A stretch of 58,704 nt of DNA. It comes from a virus. This document shows positions 218 through 58,704 of the stretch, piece after piece (position 1 is the first letter of the stretch; the number at the start of each line of letters is the position of its first letter). Where the stretch lies: the IMG/VR virus record IMGVR_UViG_3300035494_000106, positions 1 through 58,704 of that record. The stretch is one strand, 5' to 3'. A program made the translations under genes and the position numbers. The notes under the pieces are model-generated. The model was not told where the DNA came from. It saw only the letters and a program-made list of their open reading frames with translations, and did no database searches.

Positions 218-784
218 ATGTCCCGTAAGAACTCCAACGCTCGCACTGTCGCCGCTTTCAACATCGCCGCATGGGCCACGCGCCTCGACAGCGCTGCGCT
301 CAACTTCGTGTCCGCTGGCAAAGCTATGCTCGACCTGATGCTCGAGGCGCGCGGCAAGGTCGAGCACGAAACCGCCAAGGAGAAGCTGCAGCACGCATTC
401 GGCCAGGCATACGCGGCCACCTACGGCGTGACCTTCGAAGAAGCCGTAAAAGCGAAGTCTGTACAGAACCGCGTGTCCGACGGTCTGGCCGTACTCAAAG
501 CCGCCAATCTGCCCGACTCGCTGCCGGGCAACATTCAGCAAGCGGCTGCCGCTTGCCGCAAGGCGAACCCGTCTGGCCGCAAGTCGAGCCCACGGCAGCC
601 AGTGGCGAAGGTCGCGGCCGCCGACGTTAACCCGCTCGCGCTGCTCGAGACCGCACTTGAAGCGCTGCGCAAACAAGCGGCCGACAACCAGCCAGCGCTG
701 GAACTGATTGGCGAGCTGGTCGACCTCGCCGGCGATCTGGCCACGGCGCTGGCTGGCGAGACCGAGGATCAAGCCGCTGCTTGA
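218..784 (+). CDS. Hypothetical early protein (188 aa), acidic C-terminus
   Basis: First gene of the + arm. Leader is tttttAGGAGaaacaccATG, and box 2 plus a hairpin follow the gene. Confidence 0.8.
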   Translation: MSRKNSNARTVAAFNIAAWATRLDSAALNFVSAGKAMLDLMLEARGKVEHETAKEKLQHAFGQAYAATYGVTFEEAVKAKSVQNRVSDGLAVLKAANLPDSLPGNIQQAAAACRKANPSGRKSSPRQPVAKVAAADVNPLALLETALEALRKQAADNQPALELIGELVDLAGDLATALAGETEDQAAA

Positions 785-801
785 TTCCCTAGTCTAGGGA
801 A
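785..801. promoter_or_regulatory. Palindromic box 2, TTCCCTAGTCTAGGGAA
   Basis: Starts 1 nt after stop codon 782-784 and is immediately followed by hairpin 803-826. Confidence 0.7.
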
Positions 802-802
802 T

Positions 803-826
803 AGCTAAGCCCCTCGGGGCTTAGCT
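803..826 (+). terminator. Hairpin terminator candidate after gene 218-784
   Basis: agctaagccc-ctcg-gggcttagct, a 10-bp perfect stem followed by actttgtat (weak U-tract). Confidence 0.5.
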
Positions 827-827
827 A

Positions 828-927
828 CTTTGTATGGATAGTACAGATAGCAGCGATGTTATCTTTCCACGCTAAATTAAGGTCTAGCGGAGCTTAATTT
901 AGCTAGATTTATACTATCTATACAAAG
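828..927. repeat. Nested inverted repeats (about 100-nt cruciform/structured-RNA candidate)
   Basis: Outer arms ctttgtatggatagta (828-843) and tactatctatacaaag (912-927), 15/16 complementary. Inner arms gctaaattaag (871-881) and cttaatttagc (893-903), perfect. Confidence 0.7.
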
Positions 928-969
928 TGGCTAAGGTTCGGCGGTAAATCCGCCTAATGTATCCAAGGA

Positions 970-1270
970 TAGTAAAAAGTCGGCGCGGAATAGTAAAAAT
1001 TCCAGAAGGCTTTACTACTCTGCAGGCCGCGTGGTTGCTGGTCTGTAGTAAGAATAGTAAGAATAGTAAAGGAAAAATTGAATACCCCTTAGGGATTTTT
1101 CAGCTAACTGGTTAAGTTAGCGCTGGCGCTCCGTCCCTTAGCGCTAAAATTAGCTTAGCCGCTTCCTAAACCGCCACCGCGTATAGGAGCGTCGAAAAAA
1201 CCCTTTACTATTCTTACTATTTGACTAGAGCCCAGTATCCATGCGGGTTCCAGCGATGCCGACTTTACTA
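970..1270. repeat. Iteron array, nine copies of TAGTAA(A/G)(A/G) in both orientations
   Basis: Plus-strand copies at 970, 991, 1046, 1055 and 1064 (the last three in direct tandem). Minus-strand copies at 1010-1018, 1203-1210, 1211-1219 and 1263-1270. The region is AT-rich and free of ORFs. Confidence 0.75.
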
Positions 1271-1369
1271 TTCCGTTAGCTACTGGGCGCCGTTTCTTTG
1301 CTATTTCGGCCCGAATCACGTGACAACGAGTTTTTTAAAGTTTCTCGGCCGCTTAGGCTTGGAGTTAGC

Positions 1370-1397
1370 TTGCCCGGAGTGCCCATTGTGAGATAAT
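1370..1397 (+). promoter_or_regulatory. sigma70-like promoter candidate (TTGCCC-N16-GATAAT) for the 1502 operon
   Basis: -35 at 1370-1375 and -10 at 1392-1397. The -10 is embedded in hairpin 1379-1403. Confidence 0.3.
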
Positions 1398-1403
1398 GGG
1401 CAC
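1379..1403. promoter_or_regulatory. 9-bp perfect hairpin/operator candidate, gtgcccatt-gtgagat-aatgggcac
   Basis: Seen directly; overlaps the candidate -10. Confidence 0.5.
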
Positions 1404-1453
1404 CTAATCTGTACAAACTGCACCAACGCTAGCATCCCTACCATCCGTGCCAT

Positions 1454-1470
1454 TTCCCTAATCTAGGGAA
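1454..1470. promoter_or_regulatory. Palindromic box 3, TTCCCTAATCTAGGGAA
   Basis: 32 nt upstream of ATG 1502. Confidence 0.7.
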
Positions 1471-1501
1471 TATGCCCGACCAACGCTGAATGGAGCTGAT
1501 C

Positions 1502-1887: not shown

Positions 1888-1904
1888 CCAAGAGTCGAAA
1901 CCCG

Positions 1905-1921
1905 TTCCCTAATCTAGGGAA
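1905..1921. promoter_or_regulatory. Palindromic box 4, TTCCCTAATCTAGGGAA, with extended arms (cccg...acggg)
   Basis: Intergenic between 1887 and 1987. The flanks lengthen the stem to about 11 bp. Confidence 0.7.
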
Positions 1922-1986
1922 ACGGGTCTGCCGGGCATAGCCTCCCGGCACTGACGAGACAGGCTAACCACAACTGATTGGAGGGC

Positions 1987-4086: not shown

Positions 4087-4569
4087 ATGCGCAAAATCAC
4101 CGAAGCCGCCATTCAGGCGTTCCTCGCCGGCGAGGAGTTCAGCCGCGACAACACTCGTGTCGAGGTCCGTCCGTTCAAGGGCGAACTCGGGGACCAAGTC
4201 ATTCTGGTTCTGCACGGGAACCCGATCGCTGCCTACCTCGAGGACGTTGGACCGACCAGCCTGCGGGTGTGCGACGGCAACCACCAGACCCGCACCACGA
4301 AGGAGCGCCTCAACGGCCTGCCCGGCGTACAGGTACACCAGAAAGCCGGCCAGTGGTACCTCAACGGCACGGCGTGGGACGGCAGCTGGACCCACGTCGG
4401 CGGGGTGATGATCATCAAGCGTGTTGGCGACCGCCGCTACCGCGTCGAGTACCCGCGCAGCGCCGCTCGGGAGCCGATGGTGTTCCCCAGCCGCAAGGCC
4501 GCCCGCGTGTTCGCCGAGGTGGAAGCCGCAAACCACGGGTACGACCTGATCGCCGAGGCCGAAGCATGA
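4087..4569 (+). CDS. Hypothetical protein (160 aa); the C-terminus carries an FPSxxAAxxFAEVE motif
   Basis: Consensus leader caacttttcAGGAGacaccatcATG. Distant member of the small-paralogue family. Confidence 0.8.
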   Translation: MRKITEAAIQAFLAGEEFSRDNTRVEVRPFKGELGDQVILVLHGNPIAAYLEDVGPTSLRVCDGNHQTRTTKERLNGLPGVQVHQKAGQWYLNGTAWDGSWTHVGGVMIIKRVGDRRYRVEYPRSAAREPMVFPSRKAARVFAEVEAANHGYDLIAEAEA

Positions 4570-6630: not shown

Positions 6631-6657
6631 TTGCTACCGCCGTGGGTAGTGTAAACT
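6631..6657 (+). promoter_or_regulatory. Promoter candidate with a TGTAAACT box (-10-like TAAACT at 6652-6657)
   Basis: TTGCTA (6631-6636) lies 15 nt upstream, or CTTGCT at 16 nt. Intergenic, upstream of the MoxR gene. Confidence 0.35.
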
Positions 6658-6689
6658 AGGCTTACATTTTCAGTAACACCAACCGCAAC

Positions 6690-6733: not shown

Positions 6734-7894
6734 ATGAAAGTCAACGACCTGACCGCTATCACCGTCGCCCTCTACAACGCGAACCGCACCGGCATGTACT
6801 GGGGTTCGCCAGGCATCGGCAAGTCGGACAGCTTCCGCGCCGCCGCTGAGCAGATCAAGAACTCGCTGGGCCTGACTGGTCCGGTGCTCGAGCGTCACCA
6901 GATCAAGCCGTTCCTCGCACGTGGTGGCGATATCCGCACGACCTTCGGCCTGTTCGACCTGCGCCTGTCGCAGATGGACCCGGTGGAAGTGGGCGGCCTG
7001 CCGCGCGAGAACCGCACCAATGGCACGATGGAGAAGCTGCCGCCAAGCTGGTTCGCCCACACCCTGCGCGACGACCTGCCTGACTTCGGCATCCTGCTGC
7101 TGGAGGAGCTGCCGTCCGCACCAATGAGCGTGCAGACCGCGGCGTACCAGATCACCCTGGACAAGGTGATCGAGGACTACAAGTTGAAGGAAGGCTGGGC
7201 CACGTTCGCTGCGGGCAACCGCCTGACCGACGGCGGCCAGTACTTCAAGATGCCGAACGCATTGGCCAACCGCCTGTGCCACATCGACGTCGAGTCGGAC
7301 GTGGACAGCTGGCGCCAGTGGGCACTGGAACACAACATCGACCATAGCCTGATCGCGTTCATCAGCTTCCGCTCGGACCTGCTGAACACCACCGAGGACC
7401 ACGTGAAGAACAAGGGCAAGGGCTTTGCCTTCGCCACCGAGCGCCAGTGGGCTGCGGTCAACGACTTCCTGACCAACAACCCAGGCGCCGACGCGTCGGT
7501 GATGCACGCTGTGGTGAGCGGCCTGGTGGGCTCCGGCCCGGCCGCCGAGTACATCGGGTTCCGTGACGTGTGGAACAACATGCCGAGCATCGACGGCATC
7601 CTGATCGAGCCGGACACTGCGATCCTGCCTGAGGACGCGGCCACCCAGTTCGCCGTGATGACTGCGCTGGCGGCACGTGCGACCTATGACAACCTCGCCC
7701 AGTGCCTGCGCTACACCGACCGTCTGATGGCCAAGGGTCGCCCGGAGATGGCCGTGCTGTTCATCAAGGACATGCAGATTCGCCAGAACCTGGCATTCGA
7801 ACAGGCCAAGGCAGAGGGCCGGGCGTTCCAGCGCGCTGAGGCGTCGCCGGCGTACACGATGTGGGCCTCGCGCAACGTCCAGCTGTTTGGCTGA
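6734..7894 (+). CDS. MoxR-type AAA+ ATPase
   Basis: Walker A GSPGIGKS and Walker B ILLLEEL. Consensus leader ttcAGGAGaacaccATG. Paired with a downstream VWA protein. Confidence 0.9.
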   Translation: MKVNDLTAITVALYNANRTGMYWGSPGIGKSDSFRAAAEQIKNSLGLTGPVLERHQIKPFLARGGDIRTTFGLFDLRLSQMDPVEVGGLPRENRTNGTMEKLPPSWFAHTLRDDLPDFGILLLEELPSAPMSVQTAAYQITLDKVIEDYKLKEGWATFAAGNRLTDGGQYFKMPNALANRLCHIDVESDVDSWRQWALEHNIDHSLIAFISFRSDLLNTTEDHVKNKGKGFAFATERQWAAVNDFLTNNPGADASVMHAVVSGLVGSGPAAEYIGFRDVWNNMPSIDGILIEPDTAILPEDAATQFAVMTALAARATYDNLAQCLRYTDRLMAKGRPEMAVLFIKDMQIRQNLAFEQAKAEGRAFQRAEASPAYTMWASRNVQLFG

Positions 7895-10006: not shown

Positions 10007-10269
10007 TCGCCGGCTGGGTGGCCCTCAAGGAAGGGTACTGCCGGGCCAAGCTGGAAGTCGGCGCCAATGGGCGGCCGCACATACCGAAGTTCGACCGGAT
10101 GCACGCGCCGCACGTCATGCCTGACAGCTGGGGTGGTGGATGGGTAGCCCTCGACGGTTCGCCGGAGGCCAGGCCATTCCCCAACCGACTGGTGGAGGGC
10201 GTGGTGTTTCCCACAGCAGAGGCTGCGATGGTCGCGGCCGAGGTAGAACTTGCCAATCGGCAACCATAG
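10003..10269 (+). CDS. Small paralogue-family protein (88 aa)
   Basis: AGGAGGG RBS and ATGA coupling. IAGWVALKEG ... VVFPTAEAAMVAAEVE. Confidence 0.7.
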   Translation: MIAGWVALKEGYCRAKLEVGANGRPHIPKFDRMHAPHVMPDSWGGGWVALDGSPEARPFPNRLVEGVVFPTAEAAMVAAEVELANRQP

Positions 10270-10277
10270 TGTAAACT
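10250..10277 (+). promoter_or_regulatory. sigma70-like promoter candidate, TTGCCA-N16-TAAACT
   Basis: -35 at 10250-10255 and -10 at 10272-10277, preceded by TG. Upstream of gene 10330. Confidence 0.5.
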
Positions 10278-10286
10278 CGGTATACA

Positions 10287-10303
10287 TTCCCTAAAGTAGG
10301 GAG
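10287..10303. promoter_or_regulatory. Palindromic box 9, TTCCCTAAAGTAGGGAG
   Basis: 27 nt upstream of ATG 10330. Begins about 10 nt after the -10-like TAAACT at 10272-10277. Confidence 0.7.
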
Positions 10304-24312: not shown

Positions 24313-24639
24313 ATGCTTTCGAAAGAAGAGTTCGCCGCATTCCTGGCGCTGCTACTGGCCTTTGCCAAGGCCAATGGGTTCTCGGCCGTCATGGTCGCCA
24401 AGGCGCTCGGCGTGAGCCACCAGACTACCGCCCGCTGGATCGCCGAGGCACGCCGCCTGGCCGCCGGCGAGGAGCCGAAGATCACTGCCTACACCTTCAT
24501 GGTCGAGCCCGTTGCCGAGAAGCTCAACCGACTTAACGAACTGAACGAAGCCAGCGGCCTGTACGCCGCTATCACGCGCGAGACTCCGCAGAAGAAACTG
24601 GAGATTCTTCATGGGGCACTGGACGGCCGGGCGCTCTGA
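24313..24639 (+). CDS. HTH DNA-binding protein (108 aa)
   Basis: VMVAKALGVSHQTTARWIAEAR. Confidence 0.7.
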   Translation: MLSKEEFAAFLALLLAFAKANGFSAVMVAKALGVSHQTTARWIAEARRLAAGEEPKITAYTFMVEPVAEKLNRLNELNEASGLYAAITRETPQKKLEILHGALDGRAL

Positions 24640-24670
24640 TAGACTCAAAGCGCCCGCGAAGGAGGCCCAC

Positions 24671-27600
24671 GTGGATACCCTAGAATTTCTCCGTTTGGTT
24701 TGGCCGTCCAATGGCCAGTATCTGATCCTGATCCCCATCCAGTTTCCAGACAAGGTGACCGGGAAAACGATCAAAAGTTTCAAGCACTTCGCATACCAGA
24801 CTATTGAGGAGGCCGCAACCGCCGCACAATCTCTAGCCAACGATCGGGACAACCCGGTCGACGTGTTCTTCGCCCTCGGCTCCGTCAAGGAAGACTTGAC
24901 CCGGATGCGCAAGGAAGACCGCGAGGCACTGGGCAAAAAGGTTCGAGGCGTGCACCGCAGTGGTCACGACAACACCTGCGAGGTGAAGGCGTTCTGGCTG
25001 GACCTCGACGTCAAGGCTGATCCTCAGGCGTACGCCACCCAGCCAGAAGCGGCTACGGCGCTGCGCGAGTTCTGCCAGGTTATGGGTCTGCCCAAACCAA
25101 TGGTCACTTCGTCGGGCGGTGGCCTGCACGTGTACTGGCCACTGACCGAAGCGCTGGACCCGGACAAGTGGCAGCACTACGCTTCTATCCTGAAGCAGTT
25201 GTCAGATAGCTGGGGGCTGCGTGCCGACCCGTCCAGAACAGCAGACCGCGCGAGCGTCCTGCGGCCGGTAGGCACCCACAACTGGAAGACCGGTGCGCCT
25301 CGCACTGTGCAGGTCGTAATGGCCAGCCAGCCTGTGTCGACCGACGCGTTCCTCCAGCGACTGGCCTACCTCGTCGAGACGATGAACCTGCCGCCGGTGC
25401 AGCCGCCGCGCCACCAGCTGAACGTTGCGCAGGGGATGGTGCTGCCTGGCACCCCACTGGCCGGAAACCCACTGGCTGCGGCCGTGGACGTGGCAGCGAT
25501 GAACGAGGCGGCTGCGGCCGGCGCAGGCTACGAGCAGGCGGACCCGCGGGAGGTGGTTGCCAAGTGCCCGCAGCTAGCCTGGCAGGCGGCGAACCAAGCG
25601 GCTGTGCCCGAGCCACTCTGGTACGCCATGATCGGCTGCCTGCGCCACGCCAAGGACGGAGCCAAGGCGGTGCACTTCATGTCGAGGCAGAGCCCTACCT
25701 ACGACGTGATCGTCACCGACATGAAGCTGCAGCAGCACGCAGACGGTGGGTTCCCGCCAAGCCTGTGCGCCACGTTCGAGCACCATCGACCAGGCGGGTG
25801 CGACGGCTGTCCGTTCCGCGGCAAGATCAAGACACCGCTGCAGGTTGTGCGCAAGCTCGAGCAGGTGGCACCGCCGGTGGTTCAGCTGGCCGCGGCTGCC
25901 GGCACCGTGTCGATCGCACTGCCTCCGCCGCCCCCGCCGTTCAAGCGGGTGGTGAACCCTATGACCGGGACCGCGCGGATCGCAATGACGGTCGGCGACA
26001 AGAACGGGGTCGAGGAAGATATCGTCCTGTACGAGTACGACCTGTACCCGTCGCGGCTGATCTTCGACGAACGGGAGAACCGCTACAACGTGGTGGTCCA
26101 CCGGTGGCTGCCCAAGGACGGCTGGAAGGAGTTCGATATCCCGACCGGCAAGCTGTATGACCGCAAGCAACTGGCCATGACGCTCGGCGACATTGGCGTG
26201 ATGCCCGACCTGGGGCATGTGGAGGAGATCGTGCAATATCTCGTTGGCTACATCCGCGACCTGCAGAAAGTAGCTGCAGCGTCGACGATCTACGCTCAGC
26301 TGGGCTGGCGCCCGGAGATGGACAAGTTCGTGCTGCCAGACCGGATCATCACCGCCAGTGGCGTGGAGCCGATCACGGTCAGTCGCAACATCACCAACGC
26401 GCTCAGCTGGATGGAGCCGCGTGGCGACCTCGAAGTGTGGAAGCGCGTAGTGGCTGCGTACGAGCGCCCTGGCATGGAGGCCCACCAATTCGGCTTCGGC
26501 GTGGGGTTCGCGTCGCCACTGTTCGCGTTCACCAACTTCGGCGGCATGCTGGTATCCATGATCGGCGAGCGCGGCGCGGGCAAGTCGTCCTCAGCCATGT
26601 CGGCGAACTCGATCTATGGCCACCCGAAGATGGGCTGGGCTGACCGGGAGAACGACACTGCCAGGGCGTTCGTGCAGAAGCTGGGCGTGCTGAACAACCT
26701 GCCGGCCACCTACGACGAGCACACCAACCTCGACGGCGACATGGTGTCGGACCTGTGCTACATGGTCTCGAAGGGTCAGGGGCGCCAGCGCCTGCAGCAG
26801 AACGGCGACGCCGCGCAGAACCACGGCAACTGGCACCTGATGATGCTGATGACTGGCAACCGATCCCTGAATGCGCGGCTGGCCACAGCCAAGGCTGACA
26901 GCTCGGCAGAGGCGGCCCGGGTATTCGAGTACACGGTCCCACCGCAGACCATGAGCAAGGCCGACGCCGACCTCAACTGGGGACCGGGCGGTCTGATCTT
27001 CGACAACTTCGGCCTGGCCGGCGAGCCGTACATTCGGCACGTCATCCAGAACCAGGCTTGGGCGAAGGAGCGGGTCAAGTACTGGGTGCGCGAGGTGGAT
27101 GCCGCCGGCAACGTGAACAGCGGCGAGCGCTTCTGGTCAGCCGGCGTGGCGTGCGTACTGACTGGGTTCGAGCTGGCCAACCAGTGCGGGCTGACCAACG
27201 CCGACATTGGCCGGCTGTTCACCTTCGCCATCCGGGTCATCCACAGCATGCGCGCCGAGGTGGAGGAGAACACTCGTAGCCCGATCGGTCTGGTGTCCGA
27301 GTACATCAACTCGAACCTGCGCAGCATGATCGTGCTGACCAGCGACGCGAACACTCAGGGGTTGGCTCAGGTGCAACACGCGCCTACCAGCGACCGGCTG
27401 CGGATCAGGCTGGAGCGCCACACTGGGCGGCTGTACATCGACCGGGCTGACTTCCGCCGGTTCTGCGCCAAGGCACAGATCGACCCGAACACGGTGCAGC
27501 GCGAGCTCACGAACGCCGGTGTGCTGCGGGCCAACGCCACTCGTATCGTGCTGGGTCGGGACACGGTGTTCCGCACGGCGCAGACGATGTGCTGGCTCCT

Positions 27601-27697
27601 CGACGCCAACGCTCCGGCGCTGGCTGGCGTTGGCGACCTGTCGGCGGTGGCGACTGCTCCGGCACCTCAGCCTCAGCCAGCGGCGACGACGCCGTGA
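24671..27697 (+). CDS. Primase-polymerase (prim-pol) fused to a P-loop replicative helicase
   Basis: FWLDLDVK (DxD), SSGGGLHVYWPL, Walker A GERGAGKS and Walker B-like ATYDEH. GTG 24671 follows AGGAGG; an ATG at 24611 is an alternative. Confidence 0.9.
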   Translation: MDTLEFLRLVWPSNGQYLILIPIQFPDKVTGKTIKSFKHFAYQTIEEAATAAQSLANDRDNPVDVFFALGSVKEDLTRMRKEDREALGKKVRGVHRSGHDNTCEVKAFWLDLDVKADPQAYATQPEAATALREFCQVMGLPKPMVTSSGGGLHVYWPLTEALDPDKWQHYASILKQLSDSWGLRADPSRTADRASVLRPVGTHNWKTGAPRTVQVVMASQPVSTDAFLQRLAYLVETMNLPPVQPPRHQLNVAQGMVLPGTPLAGNPLAAAVDVAAMNEAAAAGAGYEQADPREVVAKCPQLAWQAANQAAVPEPLWYAMIGCLRHAKDGAKAVHFMSRQSPTYDVIVTDMKLQQHADGGFPPSLCATFEHHRPGGCDGCPFRGKIKTPLQVVRKLEQVAPPVVQLAAAAGTVSIALPPPPPPFKRVVNPMTGTARIAMTVGDKNGVEEDIVLYEYDLYPSRLIFDERENRYNVVVHRWLPKDGWKEFDIPTGKLYDRKQLAMTLGDIGVMPDLGHVEEIVQYLVGYIRDLQKVAAASTIYAQLGWRPEMDKFVLPDRIITASGVEPITVSRNITNALSWMEPRGDLEVWKRVVAAYERPGMEAHQFGFGVGFASPLFAFTNFGGMLVSMIGERGAGKSSSAMSANSIYGHPKMGWADRENDTARAFVQKLGVLNNLPATYDEHTNLDGDMVSDLCYMVSKGQGRQRLQQNGDAAQNHGNWHLMMLMTGNRSLNARLATAKADSSAEAARVFEYTVPPQTMSKADADLNWGPGGLIFDNFGLAGEPYIRHVIQNQAWAKERVKYWVREVDAAGNVNSGERFWSAGVACVLTGFELANQCGLTNADIGRLFTFAIRVIHSMRAEVEENTRSPIGLVSEYINSNLRSMIVLTSDANTQGLAQVQHAPTSDRLRIRLERHTGRLYIDRADFRRFCAKAQIDPNTVQRELTNAGVLRANATRIVLGRDTVFRTAQTMCWLLDANAPALAGVGDLSAVATAPAPQPQPAATTP

Positions 27698-52068: not shown

Positions 52069-53479
52069 AGGAGTTGGGCTTGTTGAATCCGAAGCCTACA
52101 GACGCGGCCTTGCGACGTCTAGCATCGCGGGCGTTGCCACTCTTGAACTCCATGCACATGTACTGACAAGCGTCGTGTACGTGGCTGAAGCTGTTCTTCT
52201 CCGGCGAGTCGGCCGTCTGCCCCTTGTTGCTCACGGCGTACCGGTACCCAGACTTAAACCCGCGGATCAGGGTGGTGCAGGACGGGTCGATCAGCAGCGC
52301 AGGTCCGGCGTCGGTCAGACGGCAGAGGTAGTCGTTAACGGCGTCTAGGCGATCTACCAACGAGTTGCTGCTTGCCGGCCTGACCTTGACGCCCAGCTCC
52401 TCCTCCAGAATCTGGCGCACCGAGCGCTCGTCTGTCTGCGCGCGCTGGGCCGTAGCCGGGTCGGCGGCGATCAGCAACTGGGCACGCGGCAGCTCCATGT
52501 TGAGCATCGGCCGGACCTTCTCGCGGCAGAACCGTCGTGCCCCCATGTTCTCGCTGGTCAGCTCGCGCAGGATCAGCAGCCGGCCATGCGGGTCGTACTG
52601 CCCGAACGTAGCCGCCGGGGTCAAGCCGGCGTCGAACCCCATGACCAGGGGCAGGTGCGGGTTGTAAATCAGCGGGCGCTTGGACACGTGCAGGTCGGGG
52701 TTGAACGCGCGGTACACCGGCTTGCCCTTGAGGCTGTAGCCCCACTGCACCTCGATGAACTGCTTGATCCACTCCTCGGACTTACCGTCCGCCAGGTTCG
52801 TATAGTACTCGCGCCCGCCAGGCAGGTTGCCGACGTTCTCCGCATGCGGGCTGAATCCACTCGGCTGCTGGTAGTAGCCCAGCTTCTTCGCCTTGGCCGA
52901 GCCGTCGTGGTCGTTCTCCCACGGCTGGTACAGCCAGTCGTACCACCAGCTGTCCTCGTTGCCCGGGTTGGTCGCGCCCCACATTCCCCACCACGTGGCG
53001 CCGCCGTCCTTCGCCGACGGGTACCGACCGCAACGGCCGGACAGGGCTTCGACGATCGCCTGCGGAATCTCCACGAACTCGTCGAGGATCGCGCCGGTGA
53101 CCTCCAGCGACAGCACGCGCCGCACGTCTTCCGGGGTGTCGAGGGGGCGGAACATGATCTCGGCCTCGACGTCGCCGTAGCGCAGCCAGAACGTTTTGCT
53201 GTGCGAGACGTACTTACCGGCCTGGCCGTCTGGGAACCACGTGAACCACGACTTCAGTGTGGTGTCCGCCAGCTGCGGGGCGGTGTTACGGACGATCACC
53301 CAGCGGGTCCGGCGAATGCCATCCACCGGCGATGGCGCCTGCAGCGCTGCACGGTGGATGATCTTGAACAGGATCGCCGTGGTCTTTGCCGAACCGACTG
53401 GGCCGACGATGAACGAGTAGAACCGGTCATCGAGGATGAACTGCTCAGCAATCGGTTCGGGTGTGTAGCTGATCGTCAT
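52058..53479 (-). CDS. terL: Terminase large subunit
   Basis: Walker A GPVGSAKT, Walker B AILDEF, and nuclease-domain acidic motifs GFDAG and HVHDA. Confidence 0.9.
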   Translation of the reverse strand: MTISYTPEPIAEQFILDDRFYSFIVGPVGSAKTTAILFKIIHRAALQAPSPVDGIRRTRWVIVRNTAPQLADTTLKSWFTWFPDGQAGKYVSHSKTFWLRYGDVEAEIMFRPLDTPEDVRRVLSLEVTGAILDEFVEIPQAIVEALSGRCGRYPSAKDGGATWWGMWGATNPGNEDSWWYDWLYQPWENDHDGSAKAKKLGYYQQPSGFSPHAENVGNLPGGREYYTNLADGKSEEWIKQFIEVQWGYSLKGKPVYRAFNPDLHVSKRPLIYNPHLPLVMGFDAGLTPAATFGQYDPHGRLLILRELTSENMGARRFCREKVRPMLNMELPRAQLLIAADPATAQRAQTDERSVRQILEEELGVKVRPASSNSLVDRLDAVNDYLCRLTDAGPALLIDPSCTTLIRGFKSGYRYAVSNKGQTADSPEKNSFSHVHDACQYMCMEFKSGNARDARRRKAASVGFGFNKPNSYAW

Positions 53480-53931
53480 GCGTCATCCCCGTCGATCGTG
53501 ATGCCGCGCTTTTCGTTCTGGCCGAAGTTGATGCTGATGCTGAACCCGGCGATGTTCCCCTTGTTCAGCTGCGCCGGCTGGTCCAGCCCGCCCCAGCGCA
53601 CGACGTCCTCGATCAGGCGGGTGACGACCTTCTGGTCAGTCTCCGGCGACATGATCATCTCGTGCACCTTGGTCAGGTAGAAGTCGGCCTGCAGCTGCGA
53701 CTTGAGGCGGAACGTCGCGCCTTCCTTCTCGAGCTGCTTGCGCAGGTCAGCTACCTGCAACGCGAACTGCGGGTTCTTGCAGATGGCCTCGAACTGATGG
53801 TACTGCAGATCGTGGGCGTCAAGGATCGACTCGGTGCTGGTGCCCAGCGCGACGTCCATGACCAAGTGCATGGACCACTCCGGGCGCAGCTCCGGGCCTA
53901 CCGGGGATACGAGCGCTAAATTCGTGGACAC
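53476..53931 (-). CDS. Terminase small subunit candidate (151 aa)
   Basis: ATGA coupling to terL. GTG start after AAGGAGGG. The call is by position only. Confidence 0.55.
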   Translation of the reverse strand: MSTNLALVSPVGPELRPEWSMHLVMDVALGTSTESILDAHDLQYHQFEAICKNPQFALQVADLRKQLEKEGATFRLKSQLQADFYLTKVHEMIMSPETDQKVVTRLIEDVVRWGGLDQPAQLNKGNIAGFSISINFGQNEKRGITIDGDDA

Positions 53932-58460: not shown

Positions 58461-58577
58461 GGTGTCTCTCCCGGGAGGTTGGCTTCGCTATTGACCCGCT
58501 GCGCAGCGGAGGGTTCAGCGTAGGAGGCTGGTTAAAATTTGGCCAGAAAATTTTTGGGGCTTGGTAACTTTGGGGAC

Positions 58578-58704
58578 TTTGTATACCGAGTAATTTTGGG
58601 TCCGCGATATACGGGACGGGGGTAATACGCTACCCGCGCGCCCTGGTTCCCCCAGCCCCTCCGTCCCCTCGCCCAAAAAGAATTATTTTTCTTCGCCCGT
58701 TCCC
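58578..58704. repeat. Terminal exact repeat, copy 2 (identical to 1-127)
   Basis: Same 127 nt as the window start. Confidence 0.95.

Follow-up and report, generated by a model that had tools for sequence, protein, structure and literature searches.

The 58,704-nucleotide stretch of viral DNA analyzed here (the window; IMG/VR record IMGVR_UViG_3300035494_000106) has a gap free of open reading frames (ORFs) at 785–1501, and within this gap short repeated sites, or iterons, together form one imperfect dyad of about 340 bp (967–1304). We propose that the dyad core, approximately 967–1304, is the phage origin of bidirectional replication and is served by a primase-DUF927 helicase encoded in the same genome. 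This is the best single reading of the locus, and we hold it with middling confidence. It is considerably safer to regard the dyad as a selected, DNA-level array of protein-binding sites, which we consider very probable. If the origin reading is correct, the helicase would bind the dyad sites and replication would start at the dyad. The dyad is most likely a further example of a familiar origin design in a hardly studied phage clade. Its parts, and the gene of the proposed initiator, are as follows.

967–1072 (+): left arm of the dyad, with iterons at 970–977 (+), 991–998 (+) and 1010–1017 (−) and a tandem array at 1046–1072 (+).
1073–1201 (no strand): dyad center of 129 bp, with adenine-thymine (AT)-rich margins at 1073–1085 and an A6 tract at 1195–1200, and a guanine-cytosine (GC)-rich core at about 1125–1144.
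1202–1304 (−): right arm of the dyad, with tandem iterons at 1203–1210 and 1212–1219, a spacer, and iterons at 1263–1270 and 1296–1303.
24611–27697 (+): gene for a 1028-aa primase(PrimPol-like)-DUF927 helicase, the proposed trans-acting, iteron-binding initiator.

All nine copies of TAGTAARR in the window lie within 970–1270, five of them direct (970, 991, 1046, 1055 and 1064, + strand) and four inverted (1010, 1203, 1212 and 1263, − strand), as the first-pass annotation of this DNA had reported. Only 0.83 copies are expected, and none of 100 shuffles reached nine; for the TAGTAA core, the count of nine stands against a local shuffle mean of 0.46. A tenth iteron, TAGCAAAG, is located at 1296–1303 (−). 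With the broader consensus WAGYAARR, ten sites are found in 970–1303, in addition to two iteron-like half-sites at 837–843 and 913–919. No second iteron cluster was detected elsewhere in the window, including the vicinity of the helicase gene. What the first-pass annotation missed is that the iterons belong to a single dyad. Its arms are about 105 nt each, and their inner ends form a perfect 20-nt inverted repeat (1053–1072/1202–1221). In the left arm, a forward pair of sites 21 bp apart is followed 19 bp on by a reverse site, then by a GC-rich spacer (1018–1045, containing CCGCGTGG) and by three tandem forward sites at a 9-bp step. The right arm additionally carries degenerate copies, a third tandem site near 1221 and another site at 1276–1284.

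The three least stable 30-bp segments of the genome are 892–921, 1051–1080 and 1194–1223, with duplex stabilities of −29 to −32 kcal/mol compared with a genome mean of −46.0 ± 3.1 kcal/mol. The latter two correspond to the tandem iteron arrays and the A-tracts beside them, and the A6 tract at 1195–1200 is present as originally described. The gap as a whole has a GC content of 0.40–0.51 against a genome mean of 0.64, and 750–1500 is the sole long tract of the genome below 52% GC. No ORF of at least 60 aa is found in 785–1501, the longest being 52–56 aa. The earlier picture of an AT-rich, ORF-free gap in a GC-rich genome therefore holds, and every element that the first-pass annotation listed lies where it had been placed, far above chance. 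Hidden small proteins in the gaps of this phage and its relatives were considered and rejected, since the stop-free segments match one another in all six frames and across strands; the conservation of the gap is at the nucleotide level rather than the protein level. A blastn search of the gap against GenBank phages and PLSDB plasmids returned no match.

The window is a circular assembly in which positions 1–127 are identical to 58578–58704, a 127-bp assembler overlap that leaves a unique length of 58,577 bp. Because the ends are identical, the map is circular and its start coordinate is arbitrary. The motif CTTTGTATA at 58577–58585, which had been described as recurring at the contig junction, is real, but the junction is the assembler overlap and not a genome end. 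As the motif falls within this overlap, it says nothing about where the genome ends.

The dyad also occurs in relatives, which were located through the gene that precedes the gap.

218–784 (+): gene for a 188-aa all-helical protein, always directly upstream of the dyad in the relatives (synteny).

This protein has 40 homologues in public metagenomes, and 24 loci around such homologues were examined. It has no match in Pfam, PHROGs, NCBIfam, a PDB sequence search or Foldseek (PDB, BFVD), and on these grounds it was set aside as a candidate iteron binder. Wherever a downstream gene could be called, an ORF-free gap of about 690–1100 bp follows the 190-aa gene, and the eleven measured gaps of relatives have a GC content of 0.45–0.52 compared with 0.58–0.64 for the locus. 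The repeats flagged by the first-pass annotation are conserved: the dyad occurs with the same site order and spacing in seven closely related genomes. Each shares two forward sites 20–21 bp apart, a reverse site 19–20 bp further, a GC spacer of about 36 bp, two to three tandem sites at a 9-bp step, a center of about 110–150 bp, and then the mirror image. In six relatives that are more distant, the outer sites differ, but inverted tandem arrays still flank a center of similar size. The iteron core itself varies among genomes (TAGTAA, TAGCAA, AAGCAA, AAGGAA; consensus WAGYAA(R)). In an alignment of 14 arms, the TAG.AA cores and the tandem block are nearly invariant, while the spacers between the outer sites vary freely. 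The profile built from these arms finds arms only in loci with the 190-aa gene, as +/− pairs wherever the contig is long enough. The central GC-rich core of about 20–25 bp (GCGCCCCGTGGCTTAGCC) is recognizable in most of 13 aligned relatives. A pattern scan for the inner inverted iterons in IMG/VR recovered only contigs of the relatives' loci already known and AT-rich chance matches; the same scan of GTDB genomes gave 21 chance matches, none with the 190-aa gene or the arms.

Among cultured phages, Pseudomonas phage Rollin is the nearest, with 49–61% amino acid identity in the polymerase, helicases, terminase and capsid. Its common ground with the window is limited to the replication and structural modules. 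The AT-rich region of Rollin (1–1100) nevertheless contains palindromes, AAAAGGTAGCAAGTTACTACCTTTT, built from the TAGYAA core (TAGTAA/TAGCAA), together with many GCTAA/TTAGC-type motifs and CCTAGTGCCACGTGG, the last of which also occurs in the spacers of several relatives. In a similarity search this region matched only itself, and our search for literature on phage Rollin found nothing. Since Rollin has the same iteron core but shares only the replication and structural modules, the common binder of the iterons should be a replication protein (or a structural or packaging protein). An early-region protein is unlikely to be the binder common to both phages.

The Rollin record (OR577172.1) starts inside the iteron palindromes (1–26) and has a gap of 100 N at 987–1086. 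Contigs of relatives (L048, L049, L050, L052) often end at, or within about 170 bp of, a dyad arm. Evidently, the inverted repeats of the dyad break short-read assemblies.

Two further motif classes accompany the iterons. The GCTAA/TTAGC clusters noted in the first pass are well supported, with 13 of the 22 window copies located in 804–1369, compared with a mean of 1.5 and a maximum of 7 in local shuffles. In several relatives and Rollin, the corresponding motif class of the gap is a 7-bp palindrome, GCTNAGC (GCTCAGC/GCTGAGC in L001). Tracts of the GCTAA/GCTNAGC type extend over 804–1369 in the window, 6562–7166 in L001, 4611–4978 in L046 and 156–891 in Rollin, and their inverted copies are variably spaced. 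The second motif, ATACAAAG, flanks the dyad region at 828–835 (−) and 920–927 (+), with a variant at 1410–1417, and is also present at 58577–58584 (−), in the divergent early/late promoter region. Its form in the relatives is TGTAYAAAGT, and L041 and L049 have inverted copies on either side of the dyad.

The evolution of the arms favors DNA sites over paired RNA. As a pairing test, we used the mismatch spectrum obtained by comparing each left arm with the reverse complement of the right arm in seven genomes. The comparison gave 527 matches, 33 G:T, 34 A:C and 120 other mismatches, and 84 gap columns. A mismatch ratio of 1:1:4 is what chance would give, and neither strand therefore shows wobble tolerance. 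In the window, the third outer site of the right arm has the orientation opposite to that of its counterpart in relatives, and the CCTAGTGCCACG motif is inverted in L051 and direct in L054. Such flips argue for DNA because they keep a protein site and destroy pairing. Moreover, right arms share a 1-nt deletion in six of the seven genomes that left arms do not have. The arms thus evolve as separate orthologous units, with no homogenization.

The first-pass annotation considered that the locus could equally encode a small RNA, which might take the form of a long hairpin of both arms, an RNA from the center, or the hairpin at 822–933. The very stable single-strand fold of 800–940 (−64.1 kcal/mol, z = −9.4) and the perfect 20-nt inverted repeat speak for such an RNA, and the innermost iteron varies between genomes alike on both arms. 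A hammerhead ribozyme is also encoded 400 bp downstream, and ribozyme neighborhoods can hold other RNAs. However, Rfam shows no family in the window gap even at E ≤ 10, and none at the gathering score in 18 related loci. The arms show no G:U excess and many indels, besides the flipped sites, and RNAalifold on the center finds no consensus fold there, with the iteron arms alone pairing (−4.4 kcal/mol). The hairpin at 822–933, whose stems (828–927) the first-pass annotation had suggested comparing with related phages for covariation, is common only to the window and relative L046, with no compensatory change. As for a transcript, the terminator lies upstream of the dyad and the promoter downstream of it, and no conserved promoter reading into the dyad was found among the relatives. 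Neither a conserved structure with compensation or wobble nor a promoter and terminator delimiting a transcript is therefore seen, and we regard a structured noncoding RNA as very unlikely.

The candidate initiator belongs to a recognizable helicase group. The 1028-aa protein matches Pfam DUF927 (4.8e-25) and, weakly, LigD_Prim-Pol (22 bits); its helicase part matches Cch of the staphylococcal cassette chromosome mec (SCCmec; PDB 5DGK) by sequence (3.5e-6), and it is 54% identical to its Rollin counterpart. An AlphaFold model of the last 289 residues, based on a 9-sequence alignment, has a mean predicted local distance difference test score (pLDDT) of 65, and its final helix-helix-strand-strand part reaches 75–92. 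Against the Rep of staphylococcal pathogenicity island (SaPI) SaPIbov1 (8TCH) and Cch (5DGK), the Foldseek probability of this model is 1.00, with a template modeling (TM) score of only 0.28. The helix-helix-strand-strand pattern (fragment residues 206–259) suggests that the C-terminus may contain a winged helix. The replication module of the window also includes an ATP-dependent ligase, an Rv2179c-like exonuclease, an A-family polymerase, a PD-(D/E)XK nuclease and a SNF2 helicase. Helicases of the DUF927/Rep/Cch group are self-loading initiators (PMC9371898, PMC7581432). SaPI Reps bind 6–12 penta- or hexanucleotide iterons via a C-terminal winged helix; an AT-rich region separates these iterons into two halves of opposite orientation, each half is bound by one hexamer, and the helicase polarity is 3′–5′ (PMC9371898).

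We propose a similar sequence of events for the dyad. The 10–12 copies of the hexamer-core iteron (WAGYAA, here TAGTAA), arranged as two mirror-image arms, would be recognized by hexamers of the primase-DUF927 helicase through the winged-helix-like region at the C-terminus, one assembly per arm, with TAGTAAGAA as the predicted helicase-bound motif. The tandem 9-bp arrays and their flanking A-tracts, which are among the least stable duplex of the genome, would then melt. Two 3′–5′ helicases would load on the purine-rich strands and move outward, and the primase domain and the phage A-family polymerase would begin synthesis. The purine-rich strand of each tandem array runs 5′–3′ toward the center, and it is plausibly the strand that a 3′–5′ helicase would follow when leaving the center.

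The closest parallel is provided by the SaPI origins and their Rep proteins (PMC9371898, PMC7581432), which likewise use short hexamer-core iterons (10–12 here, 6–12 in SaPIs) placed in two opposite-pointing sets that flank a central region containing AT-rich DNA. In the dyad, the left arm is mostly + and the right arm mostly −, although the least stable DNA lies at the two inner edges and does not fill the whole center. Both kinds of element carry the gene of a DUF927/Cch/SaPIbov1-Rep-type AAA+ helicase, here with a fused primase as in PriRep5 of SaPI5, and the predicted mechanism of one hexamer per side is the same. The dyad differs in being larger (about 340 bp), with three site-position classes and a conserved GC spacer in each arm, and in its 129-bp center, which is about 50% GC and has a conserved GC-rich core. 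Its host element is not a satellite but a 58.6-kb tailed phage of a Gram-negative-type lineage. In addition, SaPI and SCCmec origins lie directly downstream of the helicase gene, whereas the dyad is 23 kb away. The dyad thus appears to work like a SaPI-type origin and is a candidate member of that class. With the SCCmec helicases Cch/Cch2, the window helicase shares a match to Cch (5DGK) in both sequence and fold, and direct repeats of SCCmec act as helicase-binding iterons (PMC7581432). At the putative SCCmec origin, three 5-nt iterons stand beside the gene, in contrast to the large two-armed array found here far from the gene.

More distant analogues than SaPI and SCCmec are the papilloma and SV40 origins and the ori of satellite phage P4. 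The gp-alpha protein of P4 combines primase, helicase and a C-terminal origin-binding domain in one polypeptide, and its ori consists of short repeats in both orientations. The P4 origin can lie away from the gene, and P4 needs a second distant cis site (crr). The differences are that gp-alpha is superfamily 3 (SF3)/D5-like, that its iteron is TGTTCACC, and that the window has no second iteron cluster. The basal unwinding system of oriC comprises, in order, DnaA boxes, a GC cluster, DnaA-trios and an unwinding element. The dyad resembles it in having double-strand sites, a GC-rich cluster, A-centered purine-rich repeats with a 3-nt period (TAG-TAA-GAA) and AT-rich DNA. Unlike that system, the dyad is two-sided, and its gap is not enriched in DnaA boxes. 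Relative to the outer sites, the TAG strand has the reverse polarity, and in most right arms an 8-nt step interrupts the 3-nt phase. An origin dependent on host DnaA, of the oriC or the lambda/P1 kind, was rejected because TTATCCACA-like boxes are not enriched; at two mismatches, two are found in the gap (833, 926) and none in the dyad, compared with 87 in the whole window.

A bolder version of the origin reading is conceivable, which we consider quite unlikely. Rather than ordinary duplex-binding iterons, the tandem purine-rich 9-bp arrays might be single-strand loading tracks read 3 nt at a time by an MCM-like DUF927 helicase. They would be a two-sided phage counterpart of the DnaA-trios, arranged so that two 3′–5′ helicases depart in opposite directions, and the PrimPol might then start at the invariant GC-rich core in the exact middle of the dyad. 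Each triplet of TAG-TAA-GAA has an A in the middle, and this A persists in the variants AAG-CAA-GAA and AAG-GAA-GAA of the relatives. Against this proposal stands the 8-nt step seen in most right arms.

Several observations weigh against assigning an origin function to the dyad. It lies 23 kb from the helicase gene, and its center is about 50% GC rather than a plain AT-rich block. Tandem sites follow one another every 9 bp, with a single 8-bp step in six of the seven right arms, a spacing that is unusual for sites bound on one face of the duplex. The minimum of the detrended cumulative GC skew is at 4370, not at the dyad. However, the skew is uninformative as an origin marker here because it is confounded by gene orientation (two divergent transcription blocks). 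The origin model gives no account of the conserved GCTAA/GCTNAGC motifs, ATACAAAG or the central GC core. The C-terminal Foldseek match of the helicase has a low TM score (0.28) and comes from a model with a mean pLDDT of 65. More generally, the origin role is an inference.

The DNA-level evidence would fit equally well if the dyad were the assembly site of another protein with a role other than replication initiation. Such a site could be a silencer or insulator for the switch from the first early gene to the remainder of the early operon. It could also be a checkpoint at which DNA entering in steps is halted, perhaps comparable to the repeat-rich injection-stop region of phage T5. Possible binders are the neighboring 188-aa protein and the small helix-turn-helix (HTH)-like protein encoded at 1502–1654. 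The 188-aa gene always adjoins the dyad and is its own unit ending in a terminator, downstream of the dyad comes a conserved promoter overlapped by an operator-like inverted repeat, and 17-bp palindromes bracket the gap. However, the 188-aa protein has no recognizable DNA-binding fold, and no homologue of it was detected in Rollin, which has the same iteron core; the latter is a weak point, as the Rollin record has a gap of N. The extreme duplex instability and the two-sided layout correspond to the needs of origins and not of operators. We consider this explanation rather unlikely.

A packaging or genome-end signal (pac, cos or a terminal-repeat border) recognized by terminase seems highly improbable to us, even though a small-terminase candidate (53476–53931) is among the proteins shared with Rollin and some pac sites, such as that of P1, have two-sided repeat arrays. 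Many contigs of the relatives end in this region, but they do so at differing points that coincide with the inverted-repeat arms, as assembly breaks do, and the window was assembled as a circle through the region. Moreover, the terminase genes are about 5.4 kb away, with tail-fiber genes between. The first-pass annotation had also offered a partition site as an alternative to an origin. The origin half of that suggestion is strengthened by the conserved dyad, the unstable tandem arrays and the helicase of the SaPI-Rep/Cch type. A partition site is unlikely because no ParA/ParB-type (or ParM/ParR, TubZ/TubR) family was found among the ORFs scanned, which do not cover every ORF of the window, and because the plasmid search returned no similar DNA and the pattern scan only chance matches in bacterial genomes.

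If the origin reading is true, it provides a testable origin for a little-studied clade comprising the Pseudomonas aeruginosa phage Rollin and about 40 metagenomic relatives. It would extend the logic of a self-loading helicase and two-sided iterons beyond the staphylococcal islands, to a tailed phage of 58.6 kb that encodes a primase-DUF927 fusion. The compact element of about 340 bp, with its separable parts (outer sites, GC spacer, tandem arrays and core), would be a convenient substrate for studies of melting and loading by MCM-like helicases. Knowledge of the dyad also helps to finish the genomes of these phages, since the inverted arms break short-read assemblies.

The dyad is embedded in a set of flanking elements, which are arranged along the gap as follows.

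785–801 (no strand): left bracket of the gap, a 17-bp palindrome, TTCCCTAGTCTAGGGAA, one of nine early-region copies (0.01 expected).
802–827 (+): intrinsic-terminator-like hairpin ending the unit of the 188-aa gene, with an 11–12 bp stem followed by CTTTGT.
822–933 (no strand): nested inverted repeat of 112 nt, with outer arms containing CTTTGTAT and a GATAGTA iteron-like half-site, and an inner hairpin at 871–903.
1370–1403 (+): sigma-70-type promoter, TTGCCC-16-GATAAT with a TG-extended −10, overlapped by a 9-bp inverted repeat (1379–1387/1395–1403).
1454–1470 (no strand): right bracket of the gap, the 17-bp palindrome again, 31 nt ahead of the ATG at 1502.

The terminator-like hairpin, previously placed at 803–826, is found at 802–827, and direct reading of the sequences shows a GC-rich hairpin with a T-run after the 190-aa gene in the window and in most of 13 relatives inspected. 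The nested inverted repeat of about 100 nt was also recovered, with outer arms at 820–848/907–935 (29 nt, 86%) and inner arms at 871–884/890–903. Likewise, the 9-bp hairpin over GATAAT at 1379–1403 is present. The promoter proper spans 1370–1397, with the −10 GATAAT at 1392–1397, and would drive the downstream early genes. The inverted repeat over it looks operator-like. A TG-extended promoter is located at the equivalent place in L046, L054, L057, L062 and L060, and L042 has a promoter matching 11 of 12 consensus positions without the TG; this promoter downstream of the dyad is the only one conserved across the relatives. A sigma-54 promoter in the GC spacer was considered and dismissed as a family feature, as TGGCAC-N5-CTGCA is found only in L054 and L062 and is absent from the window. 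The gap is followed first by a gene (1502–1654, +) for a 50-aa protein with an HTH-like stretch, GVPGATIAKWLSRL, and the same position is filled by genes of 51–55 aa in three relatives (L046, L054 and L057). This protein may act on the inverted repeat overlapping the promoter at 1379–1403.

The early region beyond the gap holds other repeated elements. A type II hammerhead ribozyme lies between early genes at 1893–1968 (+), scoring 46.2 bits against a gathering score of 37, and a copy of the 17-bp palindrome makes up its stem I. Three relatives also have hammerheads in their early operons, though not at a fixed position (L046 5781–5856, L059 2439–2503 and L051 2868–2967). The palindrome, TTCCCTANNCTAGGGAA, has nine copies (at 123, 785, 1454, 1905, 3146, 4038, 4808, 6690 and 10287) and is confined to the first 10.3 kb; six of the nine stand 15–80 nt upstream of an early-gene start codon. 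The relatives have their own variant of the palindrome (e.g., ATCCCTACCGTAGGGAT), and their gaps are bracketed by it in the same way. The palindrome may function as an operator or as a hairpin in the 5′ untranslated region. Finally, a 21-bp motif, TAGTGTAAACTNGGNWTACAT, occurs twice on the + strand (6647–6667 and 10267–10287), 40–65 nt before the gene starts at 6734 and 10330. A palindrome copy follows the motif directly (10267) or after about 20 nt (6647). The motif looks like a phage-specific promoter.

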